Virus record (IMG/VR): IMGVR_UViG_2778261105_000002
Span: 1 to 6,838 of that record
Strand: one strand, 5' to 3'
DNA: 6,838 nt
Origin: a virus
Taxonomy: Duplodnaviria; Heunggongvirae; Uroviricota; Caudoviricetes
Shown piece after piece: positions 1-6,838 of this stretch. The translations under genes were made by a program, and so were the position numbers. How positions within the stretch are numbered: the first letter of the stretch is position 1; each line of letters begins with the position of its first letter. The notes below the pieces were generated by a model. It was not told the DNA's origin and did no database searches. It saw nothing but the letters and a program-made list of their open reading frames with translations.

Positions 1-119
1 TTGCAGAAAAAATACCGCTCACCGCCCTGCACCGTCAGGTCGATTTCCCAGAGCACCACCCGCGGTGACTGCTCTGACTTAACCGACTCGTTCAGGCTTT
101 CTTCGTGAATATCCTGCAT
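1..119 (-). CDS. L: Minor tail protein L (lambda gpL-like), N-terminal fragment only; gene continues past the window start
   Basis: Minus-strand translation from ATG at 119..117 gives MQDIHEESLNESVKSEQSPRVVLWEIDLTVQGGERYFFC, closely matching the lambda gpL N-terminus as I remember it (MQDIRQETLNE...VVLWEIDLTEVGGERYFFC). An in-frame ATG at 131..129 (MGGY-MQDI) is an alternative start but follows the terminator U-tract directly with no Shine-Dalgarno. This ORF is below the length cutoff of the supplied track. Confidence 0.8.
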   Translation of the reverse strand, partial: MQDIHEESLNESVKSEQSPRVVLWEIDLTVQGGERYFFC

Positions 120-131
120 ATATCCGCCCAT

Positions 132-155
132 AAAAAAGGGGCGCAGACGCGCCCC
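132..155 (-). terminator. Rho-independent terminator closing the porin cassette
   Basis: On the minus strand: GGGGCGC-GUCU-GCGCCCC (perfect 7-bp all-GC stem at 155..138, 4-nt loop) followed directly by UUUUUU (137..132). On the plus strand the hairpin is preceded, not followed, by the A-run, so it is unidirectional for minus-strand transcripts. Confidence 0.75.
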
Positions 156-158
156 GAA

Positions 159-328
159 CAATAAAAGTCCAATTTAAAATAAAACCAATAAAGGTAATAA
201 CAGAAAGTTAAATCAGCACATGCCAGATGGCAATTGCTGATCGCAGTGACCAATGAAAACTGTGTTTTCATTGATACAGGCCGCCTGTAAGGGCAGACGG
301 CCCGTATTTATTAACTTATCAGCAATAA
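159..328 (-). ncRNA. Structured 3' region of the porin transcript; candidate 3'-UTR-derived small RNA (IpeX-like hypothesis)
   Basis: About 170 nt between the porin stop (331..329) and the terminator carry three consecutive hairpins: a 9-bp inverted repeat ACTTATCAG/CTGATAAGT (314..322 / 335..343) with the stop codon in its loop; a 9-bp stem at 279..302 with a 6-nt loop (one C/A mismatch on plus, a G-U wobble in minus-strand RNA); and a perfect 10-bp inverted repeat CAATGAAAAC-TGT-GTTTTCATTG (251..273). No convincing ORF is present. The sRNA assignment is inference only. Confidence 0.25.
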
Positions 329-1483
329 TCAGAACTGATAAGTCATACCCACAGCAACGATATTATCTGTCGCAACACCGGCTTTCCGGGTAAATTCACT
401 TTCATCAATCAGGTTAATTTTATAATCAACATAGGTGGACATATTCTTGTTAAAGTAATAAGTCGCACCGACATCAATATATTTAACCAGATCCTGATCG
501 CCATGGTTCACACCACCAACCATAACATCCTGTCCGCGGGACTGAAGGTAGGCAAGGGACGGGCGCAGACCAAAATCAAACTGATACTGAACAACGGCTT
601 CGATATTCTGAGCTTTATCCGCAACACCTTGATCACCAAAGGTCGTCATATTCTGGGTTTCAGAATACACTGCTGCCAGATACAGGTTATTGGCATCATA
701 TTTAAGACCAGTTCCCCAGAATTCAGCATGTTTACCTTTTGCCACACTACCTGAGTCAACTGCTTTTTCTCCAACCTTTTTACCTGATGCAGGATCAAGA
801 ACATCTGCAGTACCATTCAACCCCTGAACCTGCTTATCAGTACGATCTGACTTGGTATACGCAGCGACAAAACCAAAACCATCAAACTCATAGCTGGCCG
901 AGAAACCATACCCGTCGCCATTAGCCTTCTGAAGGTCATCACGCTCATTTTTGCCCTGATACTGCGCCGCAAAATTCAGACCATCAACCAGTCCGAAGAA
1001 GTCTGTATTACGGTAAGTCAGGACACCGGAAGTTCGGGCCGTCATAAAGTTATCGGTCTGCGTCCAGCCATCACCACCAAACTCAGGCAGTACGTCAGTA
1101 TATGATCCGACATCGTAAGCAATACCATAGTTACGTCCGTAATCAATGGTACCAACATCTGCAAATCTCAGACCTGCAAATGCCAGACGGGTTTTATTTC
1201 CCGCGGAACCTTCAGATTCCGTTTTATTACCAGAGAACTGGTATTCCCACTGACCAAATCCGGTCAGTTGATCATTAATCTGCGTTTCGCCTTTAAAGCC
1301 GAGACGAGCATAAGTCTGGTCTCCGTCATTACCTTTATCATCCGAGAAGTAATGCAGAGCGGTTGCACGCCCGTAAAGATCCAGTTTATTACCATCTTTA
1401 TTATAAACTTCTGCTGCCTGCGCCCCCGCAGCAAACATCACTGCCACTGCTACAGCAGAAAGTGCCACTGTCATTTTTTTCAT
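329..1483 (-). CDS. General bacterial porin, OmpC/OmpF/PhoE family (16-strand outer membrane porin), complete, 384 aa
   Basis: Full ORF with a Shine-Dalgarno AAGGA 7 nt upstream of ATG (1483..1481). Signal peptide [23 protein letters not shown] with an AQA|AEV cleavage site. Mature N-terminus [16 protein letters not shown]3 constriction motif PEFGG, conserved blocks [79 protein letters not shown], and a C-terminal aromatic ...GMTYQF, all characteristic of enterobacterial general porins. Confidence 0.95.
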
Positions 1484-1681
1484 GATTTAATCCTTATTTA
1501 AACTGAACTATTCATGCATTCAGATGTCATGAACAAAAATTAAAATATTTTAATACAAATTCTTAGTTCAATTTATATTATGTAACAAAATGTAAATGCA
1601 AGATCGATTTCGCACTTTCTGACAAGACAGATTAAAAATAATTAACAACTAAACACTAAAGAATGATTTATAGGATAATTC
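1484..1681 (-). promoter_or_regulatory. AT-rich upstream and 5'-UTR region of the porin gene (own promoter likely)
   Basis: A 198-bp AT-rich spacer starts immediately after the M stop codon (1684..1682). A sigma70-like candidate on the minus strand is TTGCAT - 17 nt - ATATAA (approx 1602..1574), but its spacer overlaps the OmpR-like box, so the exact promoter is unresolved. A perfect 14-bp palindrome TTAAAATATTTTAA lies at 1540..1553. Confidence 0.5.
1577..1596 (-). promoter_or_regulatory. OmpR-box-like motif
   Basis: Minus-strand TTTACATTTTGTTACATAAT, with direct half-sites TTTACA and GTTACA 10 bp apart. It closely resembles the E. coli OmpR sites as I recall them (ompC C1 TTTACATTTTGAAACATCTA; ompF F1 TTTACTTTTGGTTACATATT). 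It lies 94-113 nt upstream of the porin ATG. Confidence 0.4.
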
Positions 1682-2023
1682 TCATCTAACTACCTGCTCT
1701 ATCGTGCAACTGAAATCACTGTACCGGGCGTTATCCGTAATACTCCACTCCCGGCACACCACCCTGACCGTCCGGTTATGTTTCGGGGGCTTCCACAAAA
1801 AAGCCCGGTAACCACCATGCCATGACAGAAACGCGGACAGTGCCTCCCGCTCAGCATCCGTTGTCACCCGAAAAACCACCTGAAAGGTCTTCAGTTGCGC
1901 ATTCAGTCCTGCCGGACGACGCTGCTGATAACCGTCGCCAAACTTCACCGTCATCACCGACGGTTTCTCCGTCACCTGCATCCCTTCCCGGGGACACCAG
2001 TGAAGAGTCTTAATCTCATCCAC
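1682..2023 (-). CDS. M: Minor tail protein M (lambda gpM-like), 113 aa, GTG start
   Basis: Translation ...IKTLHWCPREGMQVTEKPSVMTVKFGDGYQQRRPAGLNAQLKTFQV...CTIEQVVR aligns along its whole length with lambda gpM as I remember it (MKTFRWKVKPGMDVASVPSVRKVRFGDGYSQRAPAGLNANLKTY...FEQVVN). The start is GTG at 2023..2021 with GGAGGA 7 nt upstream, overlapping the H stop codon. Confidence 0.9.
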   Translation of the reverse strand: MDEIKTLHWCPREGMQVTEKPSVMTVKFGDGYQQRRPAGLNAQLKTFQVVFRVTTDAEREALSAFLSWHGGYRAFLWKPPKHNRTVRVVCREWSITDNARYSDFSCTIEQVVR

Positions 2024-5000
2024 TCAGCATTCCTCCGTCACGACGCATGGATAACATCACCGCCTGTACCCGCTGGTCAATCAGTTGCACAAGGGTGCCC
2101 GCCGCTTCCGGCCCTATCTGCCCGTTAGCGCCGTCATTCTGAATGGCGATGTGGTACACCGGGGAATACACCAGACCCGCACTGCCGTTCATACTGCCCA
2201 CCGCACGCACGCCGAGTGAACCATCCGCTGCCCGGGTCAGGGGCATGATGGCTTCAGGTCCGGCCTCCCCCATCAGCCCTGCCCCTTTTGCAAAGGCAAA
2301 GTACGTGGGCGTGTCCACAATACTGTTACTGTATGCACTCAGGTTTGCCGAGGTATAAACGCCGCCTTTTGCATTTGCCACCGCGCCACCCAGCCAGTTG
2401 CCTATACTGCCGAAAAATCCTCCTGCACCGGACATACTGTTTGCCGCCATCTTAATGCCGTTGACAATGGCCGCATTCATAAGAACTTTTGATATTTCCT
2501 GCAGGATTGATGCAGCCCAGCTGCGCCATTCCACTTTATTTCCGTTCAGCATCTCCGTGATGTTATTCACCATCCCTGAGATACCGTCTGTCGCAAGCTG
2601 TGCTGCCTGTGAAGCGTAATCTGATGCGCTGTCCACCCAGTTACTTAGCCCTTCCTGCAGCCCTTTCTGCCAGTCAGCACGCTGCGCATCCGATTCGGCA
2701 TAAAAAGCCTCCTGGTCTTTAAGGCGTTCACTCAGATACTGCGCATTCTGCGCCAGCGCCTGTCTGTAAAAATCCTCACTGATATCCCCTGTCTGATACT
2801 GAGACTGCAGGTCCGCATCCTTCTGGCGGTAGCCGTCACGAATCTGCTGCAGCTCCCGCATCCGTTCACGGACCCGCTCACCCTGCCCGTACCCCAGCAG
2901 CTCAGCGTCATTTGATGCCCTTGCGTCTGCATTATCATTTTTCAGGGTCTCCTCCCGGGCCCGTAACTGCTCCCGGATTTTCTTCTGGTCAATCAGGGCA
3001 GCATTGCGCAGCAGCTCCTGCTTCTGTATCTCCGTCAGGGTTTTCAGCTCGCCCTGCGAGGTCTGGTATTTCAGTTTTGCCAGTTCTGTATTCTTCCCGG
3101 CCAGTGCCAGTTGTTCCTTCTGCTGCTTCAGCAGACGGGAAAAACTGTCTTCCGCTTTTTCCGCCCCTGATTTTCCGGCCCGGGATTTGGGTTTATTCGC
3201 CTCATTATTGCGCCAGGCTTCCATCGAATTACGGATGTAACGCTGCCTCGCCTCCTGATACGTATCCCCCACCAGACCAAGGTCATCCGCCGCATACCCC
3301 AGCCGGGCACGCTCTTTTTCTTCCCCTTTCAGCCGGGACAGGGCCAGTTGACGCTCTGTGTTATTCAGGGCGCTCTGCTGTTTATCATCCAGAGTGGCCT
3401 GTGGCAGTCGCAGCGGTACACTCGCCAGTCCCTGACGCTGTTGCAGCAGTTCATTACCCAGCCCCAGCAGGCGGTTGAATTCCGTATGCTGACCGTTCAT
3501 GACCAGCAGTGACTGATACGCTTTATTCTGCTCTGCTGCCTGCTGACGAATTAACACAACACGGCGCTCTTCCAGTCCGGCAAGCACATCCTGAATGGAC
3601 TGCGCTTTTTCCTGCATCTGTGCCAGACGGGACTGCTCAACAGCAAACTGCTCTGTTGCCTGAGCAAGCTCTTCCGTTACAGTTTTCACCGATGTCAGAT
3701 GGTTTATCATGAAGCCGTTACCGGTCGTCCAGCCCGGATTAGCCAGCACATACTGATACCCGGCGATTTTTTCCTGCAGGGATTTCACCCGGCTGGCCTG
3801 CTCATCAATCAGCCGGTTCTGCTCTGTCAGCGCCTCCCGTGTTCGCCCTTCATTATCTGAGGCTTCAGGCAGAGACATTGATGGCGTTTTATGCGCGATT
3901 TCATCAATCGTCAGTGCATACTGGCGCGCAGACTCCCTGGCCTGCTCCTGATTCTGGTACAGCGTGTACCATGCGGCAGCTCCCAGCATCACCAGTCCGG
4001 GTACGCCTCCAACCAGTCCCAGCGCACCGCTCATCAGACGTGAGCCCACCGCCGTTGTACTGTTCAGCGCATTCTGGGCGGCGGTTCTGGCAGCAATATT
4101 TCTGTTCAGGCGTTCCTGTGTGACCGCCAGACGGGCCTCTGCCGCAATCTGCATCTCAGTCCCGCGGGCTGCCGCCACAGCCTGCTGAGCCCGGTACACG
4201 GCTGCCCTTGCCCGCGCCGTGGCAATCTGCGTTCCCCTTAACTGGGCCTCAGCCAGTGCCACTTCATTACGTGCAGCGGTCACAAGTCCTGCCGTGGCAG
4301 ACATCGCTCCGGAAGCCAGATTACCAAAGTACCGGGCCACCCCGACAGCAACCAGCACACCCGCAGCTGTTGCCACGGTATCAATATTTCCGGCCACACC
4401 GTTCAGTGCGCCGGAGAGCGTTTTCGTCGCTCCGCTGGCCTCATTCGCGCCGCCCACCCAGGCCATAAAGGCGTTTTCCACCTTCGTGATCCCGTCAGAC
4501 ACCGTTTCCGGCATGGCTGCATATTCATCACGCAATATCCCCAGCTGGCTGATTAACGCGGGAACGACTTTATCCGCCGTCAGTTGACCATCGTCCGCCA
4601 TCGCCTTCAGATCCTTACGGGCCACGCCCATGCCTGCAGCCAGTGCGCGAATGATCCGGTCCCCACTTTCATTGACCGAATTAAATTCCTCGCCGCGCAA
4701 CACCCCCTGTGCCAGCGCCTGGCTGAACTGGGTGATCACCGAACCCGCCTCTGCCGCACTGGCACCGGAAATTTTCAGCCCTGTCGAAATGGCCTCCGTC
4801 ACCTTCAGCACATCATCAGCACTGTAACCATATTCACGCATCGAGGCAGCCGAACGGGCAAACAGGGTCGCATTATCCGAAAATGCGGTGCCTGTCCGCT
4901 GGCTGATGTCCATCAGCACTTTCTGTGATAACGCAAATTCATCCGATGACTGCGACGCCTGTTTCAGACGGGCATTCACGGAGCTCCATTCATCTGCCAG

Positions 5001-5258
5001 CGAAATCAGGTGTCCGGTGGCAAAGGCACCGGCAAACGCACTGGTCATTCCGACAGCCGAAGCGCGGATTTCCGTCAACTGGCTGTTCAGCTCAGCCAGA
5101 GCCCGGCACTGCTCCCTGGCTGCCGCAGCAGCCTGACGTCCGCCATTCTGCAGGGTCCGGTAATATTCACTGCCCATACGGGACGCCCGCTGGATCTCCG
5201 ACTGGAATGACTGTGAATTTGCCGAAATTTTGATAATCAGTTCACGTAACGTCGCCAT
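2016..5258 (-). CDS. H: Tail tape measure protein (lambda gpH family), 1080 aa
   Basis: Very long Ala/Gln/Glu-rich, coiled-coil-like ORF with internal hydrophobic Gly/Ala-rich segments (e.g. TVATAAGVLVAVGVARYFGNLASGAMSATAGLV and GALGLVGGVPGLVMLGAAAWYTLY) and a Gly-rich C-terminal region, sitting between the G/G-T and M genes. Strong SD AGGAGAAAGGTGA directly upstream of ATG at 5258..5256. Confidence 0.95.
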   Translation of the reverse strand: MATLRELIIKISANSQSFQSEIQRASRMGSEYYRTLQNGGRQAAAAAREQCRALAELNSQLTEIRASAVGMTSAFAGAFATGHLISLADEWSSVNARLKQASQSSDEFALSQKVLMDISQRTGTAFSDNATLFARSAASMREYGYSADDVLKVTEAISTGLKISGASAAEAGSVITQFSQALAQGVLRGEEFNSVNESGDRIIRALAAGMGVARKDLKAMADDGQLTADKVVPALISQLGILRDEYAAMPETVSDGITKVENAFMAWVGGANEASGATKTLSGALNGVAGNIDTVATAAGVLVAVGVARYFGNLASGAMSATAGLVTAARNEVALAEAQLRGTQIATARARAAVYRAQQAVAAARGTEMQIAAEARLAVTQERLNRNIAARTAAQNALNSTTAVGSRLMSGALGLVGGVPGLVMLGAAAWYTLYQNQEQARESARQYALTIDEIAHKTPSMSLPEASDNEGRTREALTEQNRLIDEQASRVKSLQEKIAGYQYVLANPGWTTGNGFMINHLTSVKTVTEELAQATEQFAVEQSRLAQMQEKAQSIQDVLAGLEERRVVLIRQQAAEQNKAYQSLLVMNGQHTEFNRLLGLGNELLQQRQGLASVPLRLPQATLDDKQQSALNNTERQLALSRLKGEEKERARLGYAADDLGLVGDTYQEARQRYIRNSMEAWRNNEANKPKSRAGKSGAEKAEDSFSRLLKQQKEQLALAGKNTELAKLKYQTSQGELKTLTEIQKQELLRNAALIDQKKIREQLRAREETLKNDNADARASNDAELLGYGQGERVRERMRELQQIRDGYRQKDADLQSQYQTGDISEDFYRQALAQNAQYLSERLKDQEAFYAESDAQRADWQKGLQEGLSNWVDSASDYASQAAQLATDGISGMVNNITEMLNGNKVEWRSWAASILQEISKVLMNAAIVNGIKMAANSMSGAGGFFGSIGNWLGGAVANAKGGVYTSANLSAYSNSIVDTPTYFAFAKGAGLMGEAGPEAIMPLTRAADGSLGVRAVGSMNGSAGLVYSPVYHIAIQNDGANGQIGPEAAGTLVQLIDQRVQAVMLSMRRDGGMLSG

Positions 5259-5276
5259 TCACCTTTCTCCTGGCGT

Positions 5277-5297
5277 AAAAAAACCGCCTCAGCGGTT
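5277..5297 (-). terminator. Weak terminator-like hairpin plus U-tract between the T stop and the H start
   Basis: Minus-strand RNA AACCGC-UGAG-GCGGUU followed by UUUUU (U-run 5283..5277, the first two Us possibly paired). The stem is short with a 4-bp GC core, so at best a partial terminator or an mRNA structural element. Confidence 0.3.
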
Positions 5298-5305
5298 CTC
5301 ATCAT

Positions 5306-5985
5306 TCATGACTGTGCTGCAAGGCTCAGCGCGTCTTCCAGCGCCGCAAACGGATCCACCTCCGGCTTATCCTCATCCTCGCCCCAGCAGAGCATGGCGT
5401 CCTTCAGTGCAACATTCATCCCCTGTGCCCCGAAAACCGCTTTCACGATCTGTGCATTACGGATATCCCCGCGCTCATCACCCAGCGGGGATATCCTGTC
5501 GAACTCCATCCACATCATCGCCTCGCTCGCACTCAGGCTGTGCCGCAGTTCGGATAAGGTGCGCCCCAGACGGAGCGCAAGTCGCATCAGAAAGCGAATT
5601 TCCGGGCGGGCTACTTTTTTCTGACCGACTCTGCATCAGCGATCAGTTCCAGTGCCTGACGCAGCAAGCGGGCATGTACCGGACCATAGACGGCCAGCAC
5701 CTGCTCACGGTCGTCCGGAGTGAACACCCGTTGCAGATCCGTATCACACAGGACATCGCAGAACAGCGTCACATCCGCTTCCAGGTTACGGCGGGTTTTC
5801 GCCACCACCGACAGAGTATCGTCATCCTCTCCATCACCATTGAGCACGTCCTGCCACAGATACCAGGCCTCTGCCGAAGGCTCCCGCAGCACCACGCTGA
5901 CATTACCCCATTCCGGCACCTTCACCGTTTTATGACGAAACCCTGACAGTCTGGCCAGCGCCAGCGTTTTCAGATCCTTTTTCAT
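5306..5985 (-). CDS. Tail assembly chaperone G-T fusion made by programmed -1 ribosomal frameshift (G frame 5985..5614, then T frame 5614..5306)
   Basis: The G frame ends ...AESVRKK* with codons AGA AAA AAG TAG. The heptamer A_AAA_AAG (5620..5614) is a classic -1 slippery site. After a -1 slip the reading continues GTA GCC CGC CCG GAA... = VARPEIRFLMRLALRLG..., which is exactly the upstream extension and body of the 93-aa ORF 5306..5587. Position between V and H matches the conserved G/G-T arrangement. Confidence 0.75.
5611..5985 (-). CDS. G: Tail assembly chaperone G (lambda gpG-like), about 124 aa
   Basis: ORF directly downstream of V on the same strand. Preferred start is ATG at 5985..5983 (MKKDLKTLALARLSG...) with SD AGGGGA 9 nt upstream. 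The track's longer start at 6033 would overlap the V 3' end by 34 nt and has no SD. Assignment is by position and the frameshift architecture; I could not confirm sequence identity to lambda gpG from memory. Confidence 0.75.
   Translation of the reverse strand: MKKDLKTLALARLSGFRHKTVKVPEWGNVSVVLREPSAEAWYLWQDVLNGDGEDDDTLSVVAKTRRNLEADVTLFCDVLCDTDLQRVFTPDDREQVLAVYGPVHARLLRQALELIADAESVRKK
5614..5620 (-). other. -1 programmed frameshift slippery heptamer A_AAA_AAG
   Basis: Minus-strand AAAAAAG sits immediately before the G stop codon TAG (5613..5611), and the -1 frame is open for 102 further codons. Confidence 0.75.
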
Positions 5986-5999
5986 GATGACCCATCCCC

Positions 6000-6716
6000 T
6001 TATCCGGCGGCTGCGCTCACTGTCACGGTGCATTCAACAGACGTCACACTCTGTGCTTTCTCTGCCGAATCGGTCACCACGCAGGTATATTTCCCCGCAT
6101 CGGCGGACTGCGCACCTGGCTTACTGAAGGTGTCTGTCGTCTGCCCGTCAACCGGCTGACCATCCTTCTTCCAGGCGTATTTATACGGCGGCGTTCCCCC
6201 GTTGGCACTGACTGACATTGTCAGCAGCGCACCGGTATTCACGGTAAGTGTCTTATCCAGATTTTTCACAAACGCCAGCGGTACCACAAAGGACACCGGT
6301 TTGCCTTTCAGACGCAGTGAGAACGTTGCAGCCACCACGCCGTTGGTACCGGATGACCAGGTGTGCTGGCGCACTTCCGCCAGGAATTTAAAGCCCTTAC
6401 CGGACGGAAACAGCACCTTAAACGCATACAACGCGTCATTGTCATAGGCATCACGCAGGGCGTTCTGGGCCTGATTCAGATAAAAATTACCCGACATGGA
6501 AATCTCAGACGACGCCCCCAGACCGTTGATATTCTCCTGCTCTGTGGAGCAGAGCGTGGTCACATCAATATCCTGTTTCTGACCGGCGGTGAACTGGACT
6601 TCCTTGATGGTGCAGTCCAGGCGCAGATATTCCGCCTTATCCATAGTTTCAGCAGTCGCCGGGGCAGATGAAATCATCACCTGCGTCAGCTGTGAGCGTT
6701 CATACAAAGCAGACAT
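6000..6716 (-). CDS. V: Major tail (tube) protein V-like with a C-terminal Ig-like domain, about 238 aa
   Basis: First gene of the V-G-GT-H-M series on this strand. ATG at 6716..6714 (MSALYERSQ...) is preceded by AGGAGG with a 4-nt spacer. The C-terminal ~70 aa (...GGTPPYKYAWKKDGQPVDGQTTDTFSKPGAQSADAGKYTCVVTDSAEKAQSVTSVECTVTVS) looks like an Ig-like fold (W...Y.C pattern), as found on lambda gpV. The track's longer ORF to 6830 would read through the SD and an upstream hairpin. Confidence 0.8.
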   Translation of the reverse strand: MSALYERSQLTQVMISSAPATAETMDKAEYLRLDCTIKEVQFTAGQKQDIDVTTLCSTEQENINGLGASSEISMSGNFYLNQAQNALRDAYDNDALYAFKVLFPSGKGFKFLAEVRQHTWSSGTNGVVAATFSLRLKGKPVSFVVPLAFVKNLDKTLTVNTGALLTMSVSANGGTPPYKYAWKKDGQPVDGQTTDTFSKPGAQSADAGKYTCVVTDSAEKAQSVTSVECTVTVSAAAG

Positions 6717-6732
6717 TCTGCCTCCTGATAAT

Positions 6733-6753
6733 AAAAAACCCGCACGCGGCGGG
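6733..6753 (-). terminator. Terminator-like GC hairpin plus U6 immediately upstream of the V ribosome-binding site
   Basis: Minus-strand RNA CCCGC-CGCGU-GCGGG followed by UUUUUU (6738..6733), then AUUAUC-AGGAGG-CAGA-AUG. The stem is only 5 bp but all GC. Confidence 0.4.
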
Positions 6754-6838
6754 GTATGGGTGTAAGCGTAAACTGACCGCCGTATGTAGCCATCAGACGA
6801 GAATTGGTAACTTAGACGCCCATCTGACACAGACGGAC

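Follow-up and report, generated by a model that had tools for sequence, protein, structure and literature searches.

Between its genes for the minor tail proteins M and L, the stretch of Caudoviricetes DNA analysed here (6,838 nucleotides, positions 1 to 6,838 of IMG/VR record IMGVR_UViG_2778261105_000002, referred to below as the window) carries a porin gene whose 3' untranslated region (3'UTR) ends in a G-C-rich hairpin and a run of six U residues, just ahead of the L reading frame. The reading that best accounts for these features, with a probability of roughly 0.8, is that hairpin and U tract form the Rho-independent terminator of a self-contained, co-directional porin moron at the M/L junction, and that the hairpin is the fifth helix of a 3'UTR homologous to ipeX. 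In published usage a moron is extra DNA of foreign composition that lies between genes adjacent in relatives and has its own promoter and terminator (PMC3594210). IpeX is described as an RNA in the 3'UTR of nmpC or lc that lowers OmpC and OmpF (PMC12197685, PMC8065619, PMC5069750) and that is processed from the porin transcript (PMC12197685).

The hairpin was returned by the terminator scan with seven pairs, all of them G-C, a loop of four and the tail TTTTTTAT, and when folded alone it has a dG of -15.0 kcal/mol. It is the sole member in the window of a strict terminator class, defined by a perfect 7-bp stem with at least six G-C pairs, a loop of 3-8 and at least five T in the next eight bases; in 2000 dinucleotide-preserving shuffles this class had a mean of 0.0155, and 1.45% of the shuffles held any. 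For a lenient class the window shows no enrichment (9 hairpins as against 6.1 expected). By structure, hairpin and U6 are a textbook intrinsic (Rho-independent) terminator, and that transcription does terminate here is presumed from this structure. The earlier note had placed a strong terminator close upstream of a lambda-like L start, and it described the stem, the U6 tract, the ATG at 131 (ATG131), the GGCGGA element and the ATG at 119 correctly; the gap from the terminator to the start is 12 nt.

The succession of porin, terminator and L is found in 111 E. coli genomes, at identities from 100% down to 74% (the distant search used positions 100..340), and cassette copies were compared among representatives of the E. 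coli variants and 22 IMG/VR contigs. None of the 14 stem bases differs between the copies compared, even among variants whose flanks are ~75% identical; the flanks vary, the loop reads GTCT, GGTT or ATT, and the U tract is T6 or T7 in all variants compared by junction class. Because the stem is invariant, there is no covariation of the terminator within the M-porin-L family, and the compensatory changes seen in four of its seven pairs are those across the DLP12 and phi456 homologues.

In lambda and in the cassette-free phage JLK-2012 the M stop and the L start overlap by one base (TGATG), in a junction, CAGGTGGTGAACTGATG, that is identical in the two phages, with AGGTGGTGA preceding TGATG; in the window 1562 bases lie between the end of M at 1682 and the start of L. 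This comparison upholds the earlier view that a porin insertion has replaced the native M-L junction. The inserted cassette, of ~1.56 kb and 41.9% GC as against 56.6% in the flanking tail genes, comprises an upstream region with an OmpR-box-like site, the porin gene, a 197-nt structured 3'UTR and the terminator. It lies between genes that are adjacent in relatives, differs from them in base composition and has its own terminator-like hairpin, and on these sequence traits it is a phage moron as published, apart from direct proof of its promoter. Sequenced phages match the flanks, in two pieces that span 76% of the window, and lack the porin segment. Like HK97 gene 15, the classic moron of a tail operon (PMC3594210), the cassette is located within the tail gene cluster, and as in the lambdoid morons generally (HK97 gene 15, lambda lom and bor) it is extra DNA of foreign composition with its own terminator and a presumed promoter. 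It differs from these in its payload, which is a 384-aa porin with a structured regulatory 3'UTR and not a small membrane protein, and in that its insertion destroys an overlapping stop and start and brings a new Shine-Dalgarno (SD) sequence for an essential downstream gene. Morons, phage porins and ipeX are each known in kind, and no description of a porin between M and L was found in the literature searched; the M/L location and the orientation co-directional with late transcription are additions for which we found no description there, and so are the covariation-supported five-helix structure and the MicF/MicC-like seed considered below.

At the upstream edge of the insertion there is a 5-codon open reading frame (ORF), ATGAGAATTATCCTATAA, at 1685..1668 on the minus strand, whose ATG overlaps the M stop as ATGA and stands behind AGGTAG. 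Perhaps a remnant of the former coupled start, it is absent from the other junction classes.

The cassette 3'UTR is, on the homology of its sequence and structure with the nmpC 3'UTR of DLP12, an IpeX-family RNA. RNAalifold applied to eight cassette copies gave four hairpins and the terminator, with 8 compensatory pairs within the M-porin-L family; helix 1 (ACUUAUCAG...CUGAUAAGU) runs across the stop codon of the porin gene, whose last codons therefore belong to the conserved RNA structure. A covariance model (R1) built from the 3'UTRs of this family only was searched against 51 kb made up of DLP12, PhiR30_1, phi456, JLK-2012 and the early region of the prophage in E. coli strain N51. It gave full-length matches at the porin 3'UTRs of phi456 (66.3 bits), DLP12 nmpC (39.6 bits) and PhiR30_1 (38.8 bits), all with E <=1.7e-8, values that are rough owing to a shortened calibration, and its other match was one 10-bit partial at E 0.31. 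As a negative control, 100 unrelated bacterial loci with the identical hairpin and T6 scored at most 21 bits, mostly 10-15. By primary sequence a chain of blastn matches leads from the window to phi456 (E 5e-9) and from phi456 to DLP12 (E 6e-8); the direct comparison of the window 3'UTR with DLP12 is marginal (blastn E 0.06), and blastn and nhmmer align only the terminator and a 28-nt motif. In a ten-sequence alignment across contexts, which was fitted to the R1 model, 95% of cells are paired, as against 36-46% with partners slid, 30 of the 48 pairs change on both sides, and 0 of 500 shuffles reach the observed values. The phi456 intermediate, the R1 matches and the control loci together establish the homology, and the hairpin is therefore the counterpart of the ipeX terminator and the last helix of an RNA that moves with phage porins. 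Searching positions 1..1750 against Rfam, with E allowed up to 10, returned chance-level matches only; Rfam is without a match for the ipeX region of DLP12 too, so the missing match is uninformative.

As in the ipeX regions of DLP12 nmpC and PA-2 lc, the RNA lies on the same strand as an NmpC/Lc-type porin, between its stop codon and a G-C hairpin with U tract, and it shares the five-helix layout and a conserved A/U-rich linker (..CUGUUAU..UUACC(C)UUUAUU..). It differs from ipeX of DLP12 in being longer (197 as against ~165 nt) and in a primary sequence that is barely alignable directly, homology being apparent through structure and the phi456 intermediate. The setting differs as well, since this cassette stands in a tail operon and is co-directional with late transcription, whereas those of DLP12 and PhiR30_1 are antisense between Q and the lysis genes. 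What had escaped the earlier note is that an IpeX-family RNA, which moves with the porin between phage contexts, has this terminator as its conserved 3' end. Within the family, helix 4 (window 242..211) reads ATCAGCAATTGCCATGCATATGCTGAT in the mouse-isolate variant L005 and the exact reverse complement of this in mouse-isolate variant L006, which is a small inversion across a palindromic stem.

The porin itself is 68% identical to DLP12 NmpC and 68-69% identical to the porins of 42 phage records; of the two records examined for context, PhiR30_1 has its porin gene in antisense orientation between Q and the holin gene, and phi456 is a P1-like phage. Upstream of it, at 1596..1580 on the minus strand and 97-113 nt before the porin ATG, stands an OmpR-box-like 17-mer, TTTACATTTTGTTACAT, with 0 chance occurrences expected in the window. 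K-12 ompC likewise has a match to this pattern upstream of it, where the OmpR C1 site lies. Other cassette classes have variants of this C1-like box (TTTACATTTTGAAACAA, TTTACATTCTCTTACAT). In lysogen LF82, phage NmpC of prophage Perceval is expressed 10-fold above the prophage background (PMC9928086).

All genes of the window lie on the minus strand, in the order V (major tail protein), G/T (chaperones), H, M, porin ORF and L. Matches at 98-99.9% identity that cover 99% of the window were found in 92 complete E. coli genomes, many of them Shiga-toxin-producing E. coli (STEC), whose annotations for the region read tail tape measure, 'porin OmpC' and minor tail protein L; judged by these matches the window is the tail operon of a lambdoid, largely STEC, E. 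coli prophage. In strain N51 the region lies within a lambdoid prophage integrated at ompW, with integrase, excisionase, cI, cro, replication, Q, lysis, terminase, head and tail genes, with K, I and J annotated as intact, and with Q, every late gene, the porin and L-K-I-J all on one strand. By gene content this prophage is apparently complete.

In lambdoid late operons it is established that Q-type antitermination carries transcription through intrinsic terminators, and the gene arrangement here resembles that of Q-dependent late operons (tR') in being one long operon from Q to J, on one strand, with internal terminator-like hairpins. In the lysogen, the cassette would be transcribed from its own promoter, probably in an OmpR-dependent manner, and transcription from that promoter would end at 132-137. 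This stop would give the porin mRNA and the IpeX-like RNA a 3' end of hairpin and U tail, as in Hfq-binding small RNAs (sRNAs), and it would also keep L-K-I-J silent. After induction, Q-modified RNA polymerase arriving from far upstream would read through the terminator, and L would then be translated independently of M from GGGCGGA-N4-AUG, which replaces the native overlapping TGATG. Insulation combined with Q-dependent read-through is the standard moron model (PMC3594210), and its extension to this cassette is an inference that fits the gene layout.

A second terminator-like hairpin, CCCGC-CGCGT-GCGGG at 6739..6753 on the minus strand with T6 at 6738..6733, ends 16 nt before the V start (ATG 6716), with a strong AGGAGG after it. 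JLK-2012 has the identical hairpin, and in N51 there is a G-to-A change in its 3' arm. It is native to this operon and present without the cassette in JLK-2012, so that a terminator near a late-gene start is nothing foreign here.

The ATG at 119..117 opens MQDIHEESLNE..., and the Prokaryotic Genome Annotation Pipeline (PGAP) annotates the same start in N51, where the L protein of 232 aa begins with MQDI and matches lambda L over its whole length, without gaps, at 76% identity; JLK-2012 L, like lambda L, also begins MQDI. Five classes of spacer precede L in the cassette copies, two of 12 nt (ATGGGCGGATAT) and three of 14 nt (ATGGGCGGATACAT, ATGGGTGGAAGTTT, ATGGGTGGATGTTT). The earlier note held that the insertion may have altered L initiation, and comparison of the start region with insert-free relatives agrees: lambda and JLK-2012 have the overlapping TGATG, and the cassette copies carry a substitute SD, conserved across the classes as GGG(C/T)GGA, with a duplex energy of -5.7 to -5.8 kcal/mol with the 16S 3' end. 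The description of this SD as weak stands in part, for the 4-nt spacing to the ATG in the window is short (it is 6 nt in the other classes) and the -5.7 kcal/mol of GGGCGGA is weaker than the -7.2 of the native junction; it does not stand in so far as this value is close to the -6.0 of the porin's own site and the SD travels with the cassette. In IMG/VR the spacer precedes an L gene only where the terminator lies upstream, which assigns the replacement ribosome-binding site to the cassette junction; L initiation appears to have been re-equipped by a cassette-linked SD, which the earlier note had missed. The possibility that the spacer ATGGGYGGA.. is the native M/L junction of a cassette-free lineage was rejected on the same evidence. 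L is intact, at 232 codons, in all seven cassette variants, with a ratio of nonsynonymous to synonymous divergence (dN/dS) of 0.05-0.15 among them at dS up to 0.95, as compared with 0.13 between JLK-2012 and lambda. Behind the terminator L has been under purifying selection and has evidently remained a working gene.

A number of points weigh against the reading of a self-contained moron with its own terminator. Termination, read-through and the cassette promoter are all inferred, and the promoter scan of the window found no minus-strand sigma-70 consensus at the 9-of-12 threshold. The compensatory changes in the terminator come solely from the model-fitted cross-context alignment, and the hairpin itself is generic: a contig scan found GGGGCGC-N3-4-GCGCCCC-T6 in more than 120 unrelated bacteria ranging from Alphaproteobacteria to Cyanobacteria and Firmicutes, so that this is a terminator shape that has arisen many times. 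As that scan used the bare hairpin pattern and returned unrelated bacteria, it is uninformative on the distribution of the cassette. Among 50,697 sequenced phage records none has M-porin-L, and the tape-measure gene is a pseudogene in two variants (L007 and L008). These last two points, together with a further copy (L009) that is degraded beside insertion sequence (IS) elements, would also be expected if the terminator were a polar block that cuts L-K-I-J off from late transcription, the cassette prophages then being tail-defective remnants kept for their porin. We consider this unlikely. L is intact in seven diverged variants and as constrained as in cassette-free phages, a conserved SD stands between terminator and L, K, I and J are intact by annotation, and N51 has genes from int, xis, cI, cro and Q through lysis, head and tail; moreover, a Q-type antitermination system of the kind established for lambdoid late operons would remove such a block.

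It could also be that the hairpin serves mainly in RNA stability or processing, as a barrier to 3'-exonucleases or the 3' end of an sRNA, and is a poor terminator that leaves L uninsulated. It is indeed the last helix of a conserved five-helix RNA, and the reported processing of IpeX from the porin transcript (PMC12197685) would suit such a role; yet a 7-bp all-G-C stem with a tetraloop and an adjacent U6 is what an intrinsic terminator looks like, and all variants keep a U tract of 6-7. One role does not exclude the other, and a mainly stabilizing or processing one is improbable. For the L start, ATG131 would give MGGY-MQDI..., with the U tract abutting the start codon, and it is in frame in the window, with ATGGG present in all five junction classes. 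It is in frame only with the 12-nt spacers and out of frame with those of 14 nt, hence in three of the five classes, so that it is not conserved as an in-frame start, a point missed in the earlier note; it also lacks an SD (duplex +1.2 kcal/mol) and lies 7 nt from the -15 kcal/mol hairpin. For these reasons L is taken to start at 119, as in lambda and in agreement with the MQDI start of JLK-2012 L and with PGAP, and initiation at ATG131 is very hard to credit. Nor is there much to recommend a chance inverted repeat without function, which we regard as next to impossible: the lenient terminator class is close to its expectation, as it would be by chance, yet the strict class is not, the stem is identical between copies whose flanks have diverged, and its position matches that of the terminators in the homologous DLP12 and phi456 cassettes. 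The terminator of a mobile porin cassette thus remains the preferred reading.

The degraded L009 copy, in E. coli DETEC-P1056, has an intact porin and 3'UTR, a terminator with T5, the junction ATTACTCAGGAAATGCATG and a frameshifted L. IS66 and transposase fragments flank it, as do a Rop gene and a gene for a type VI secretion system (T6SS) effector.

The most interesting lead, and it is a lead and not a result, concerns the linker that joins helix 4 to the terminator. Throughout the M-porin-L family the core of this linker, UUAUUACCUU (200..191), does not vary, and phi456 and DLP12 retain it. MicF and MicC are chromosomal antisense sRNAs that repress ompF and ompC, and their 5' seed regions, taken from MG1655, can be aligned with the linker (MicF, UUAACUUU..UUAUUACC; MicC, GUUAU..CCUUUAUUG). 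Duplexes were predicted by folding the linker only against target positions -35..+20, with background and 400-shuffle controls; unrestricted folding of the whole UTR was dropped because it gave meaninglessly long duplexes. The window linker is predicted to pair with ompC at -26.7 kcal/mol (z -3.3) and with ompF at -22.3 kcal/mol (z -2.2), the DLP12 linker with ompC at -26.7 kcal/mol (z -4.7), and the phi456 linker with ompF at -24.5 kcal/mol (z -4.1), energies similar to those of the controls MicF-ompF (-27.4 kcal/mol, z -4.5) and MicC-ompC (-22.5 kcal/mol). In the predicted duplex of DLP12 with ompC, a 15-bp near-perfect block with one G-U covers the SD (AACCUUCUGUUAUAU with AUAUAACAGAGGGUU), and there is a second block of 9 bp. 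Besides ompC and ompF, the window linker pairs in silico with the ribosome-binding region of its own porin (-26.3, z -4.05).

The resemblance to MicF and MicC lies in this alignment and in the predicted pairing with the same ompF and ompC ribosome-binding regions; the linker sits in an mRNA 3'UTR and has no separate gene, and the seed-like stretch alone is similar. The modelling leads us to suggest, tentatively and at something short of even odds, that the 3'UTR may be a mobile MicF/MicC-like antisense RNA of the IpeX family, which would use its conserved seed, ..AACUUUCUGUUAUUACCUUUAUU.., to bind host ompC and ompF at their ribosome-binding regions. The original IpeX paper reportedly found no complementarity with ompC. 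As paraphrased in PMC12197685, IpeX acts without simple complementarity to ompC, a view that the proposal, if true, would revise. Under the proposal the cassette would work as a self-contained 'porin swap' module, making a phage porin and silencing those of the host, and the terminator would be the Hfq-type 3' end of an antisense RNA.

The region is a clear natural example of a lambdoid phage tolerating a strong terminator inside an essential operon. It also extends the IpeX element from one cryptic prophage to a family in three contexts (antisense between Q and S, P1-like, and the M/L tail junction), and gives this poorly characterised family, which has no Rfam entry, a covariation-supported five-helix structure and a concrete candidate seed through which porin cassettes of phages might silence OmpC and OmpF of the host. 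Phages use these porins as receptors and antibiotics enter through them, and STEC make up many of the 111 carrier genomes, the closest matches included. The features of the window are collected in Table 1.

Table 1. Positions of the features discussed, numbered from the first base of the window.
Feature	Position	Strand	Remarks
Terminator hairpin GGGGCGC-GUCU-GCGCCCC, helix 5 of the 3'UTR RNA	155..138	minus	7 G-C pairs
Arms and loop of the hairpin	GGGGCGC 155..149, loop GTCT 148..145, GCGCCCC 144..138	minus
U6 tract of the terminator	137..132	minus	directly 3' of the stem
A/U-rich linker	156..210	minus	predicted single-stranded; between helix 4 and terminator
Porin 3'UTR RNA region	328..132	minus	porin stop codon to U tract; 197 nt
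Helix 1 of the 3'UTR	343..334/323..314	minus
Helix 2	307..294/287..274	minus
Helix 3	273..264/260..251	minus
Helix 4	242..236/217..211	minus
Junction spacer AUGGGCGGAUAU	120..131	minus	12 nt; SD-like GGGCGGA 129..123, upstream ATG 131..129
Minor tail protein L gene, 5' end	1..119	minus	first 39 codons; ATG start 119..117
Porin gene (ORF)	329..1483	minus	384 aa; annotated ompC; NmpC/Lc-type phage porin
AT-rich porin upstream region	1484..1681	minus	presumed cassette promoter; 23% GC; OmpR-box-like site
Minor tail protein M gene	1682..2023	minus	stop 1684..1682, the upstream edge of the insertion
Tape measure gene H	5258..2016	minus

At the far end of the window all E. coli and phage matches stop at 6761, and positions 6762..6838, beyond the hairpin upstream of V, are wholly unlike N51; on this comparison they lie past a mosaic breakpoint at the U/V boundary. 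Elsewhere in the N51 prophage (L001 4542..10710 and 13564..13704), past the tail fibre genes, there are an S6-family (SPATE-type) peptidase, a YadA-like adhesin and a hok/gef toxin gene, further cargo adjoining attR at ompW. Between I and J of the same prophage (L001 17377..18088) lie ~700 bp without an annotated gene, where lambda has ~60 bp; this gap contains a 10-of-12 promoter-like site and terminator-like hairpins, and may be another small insert.

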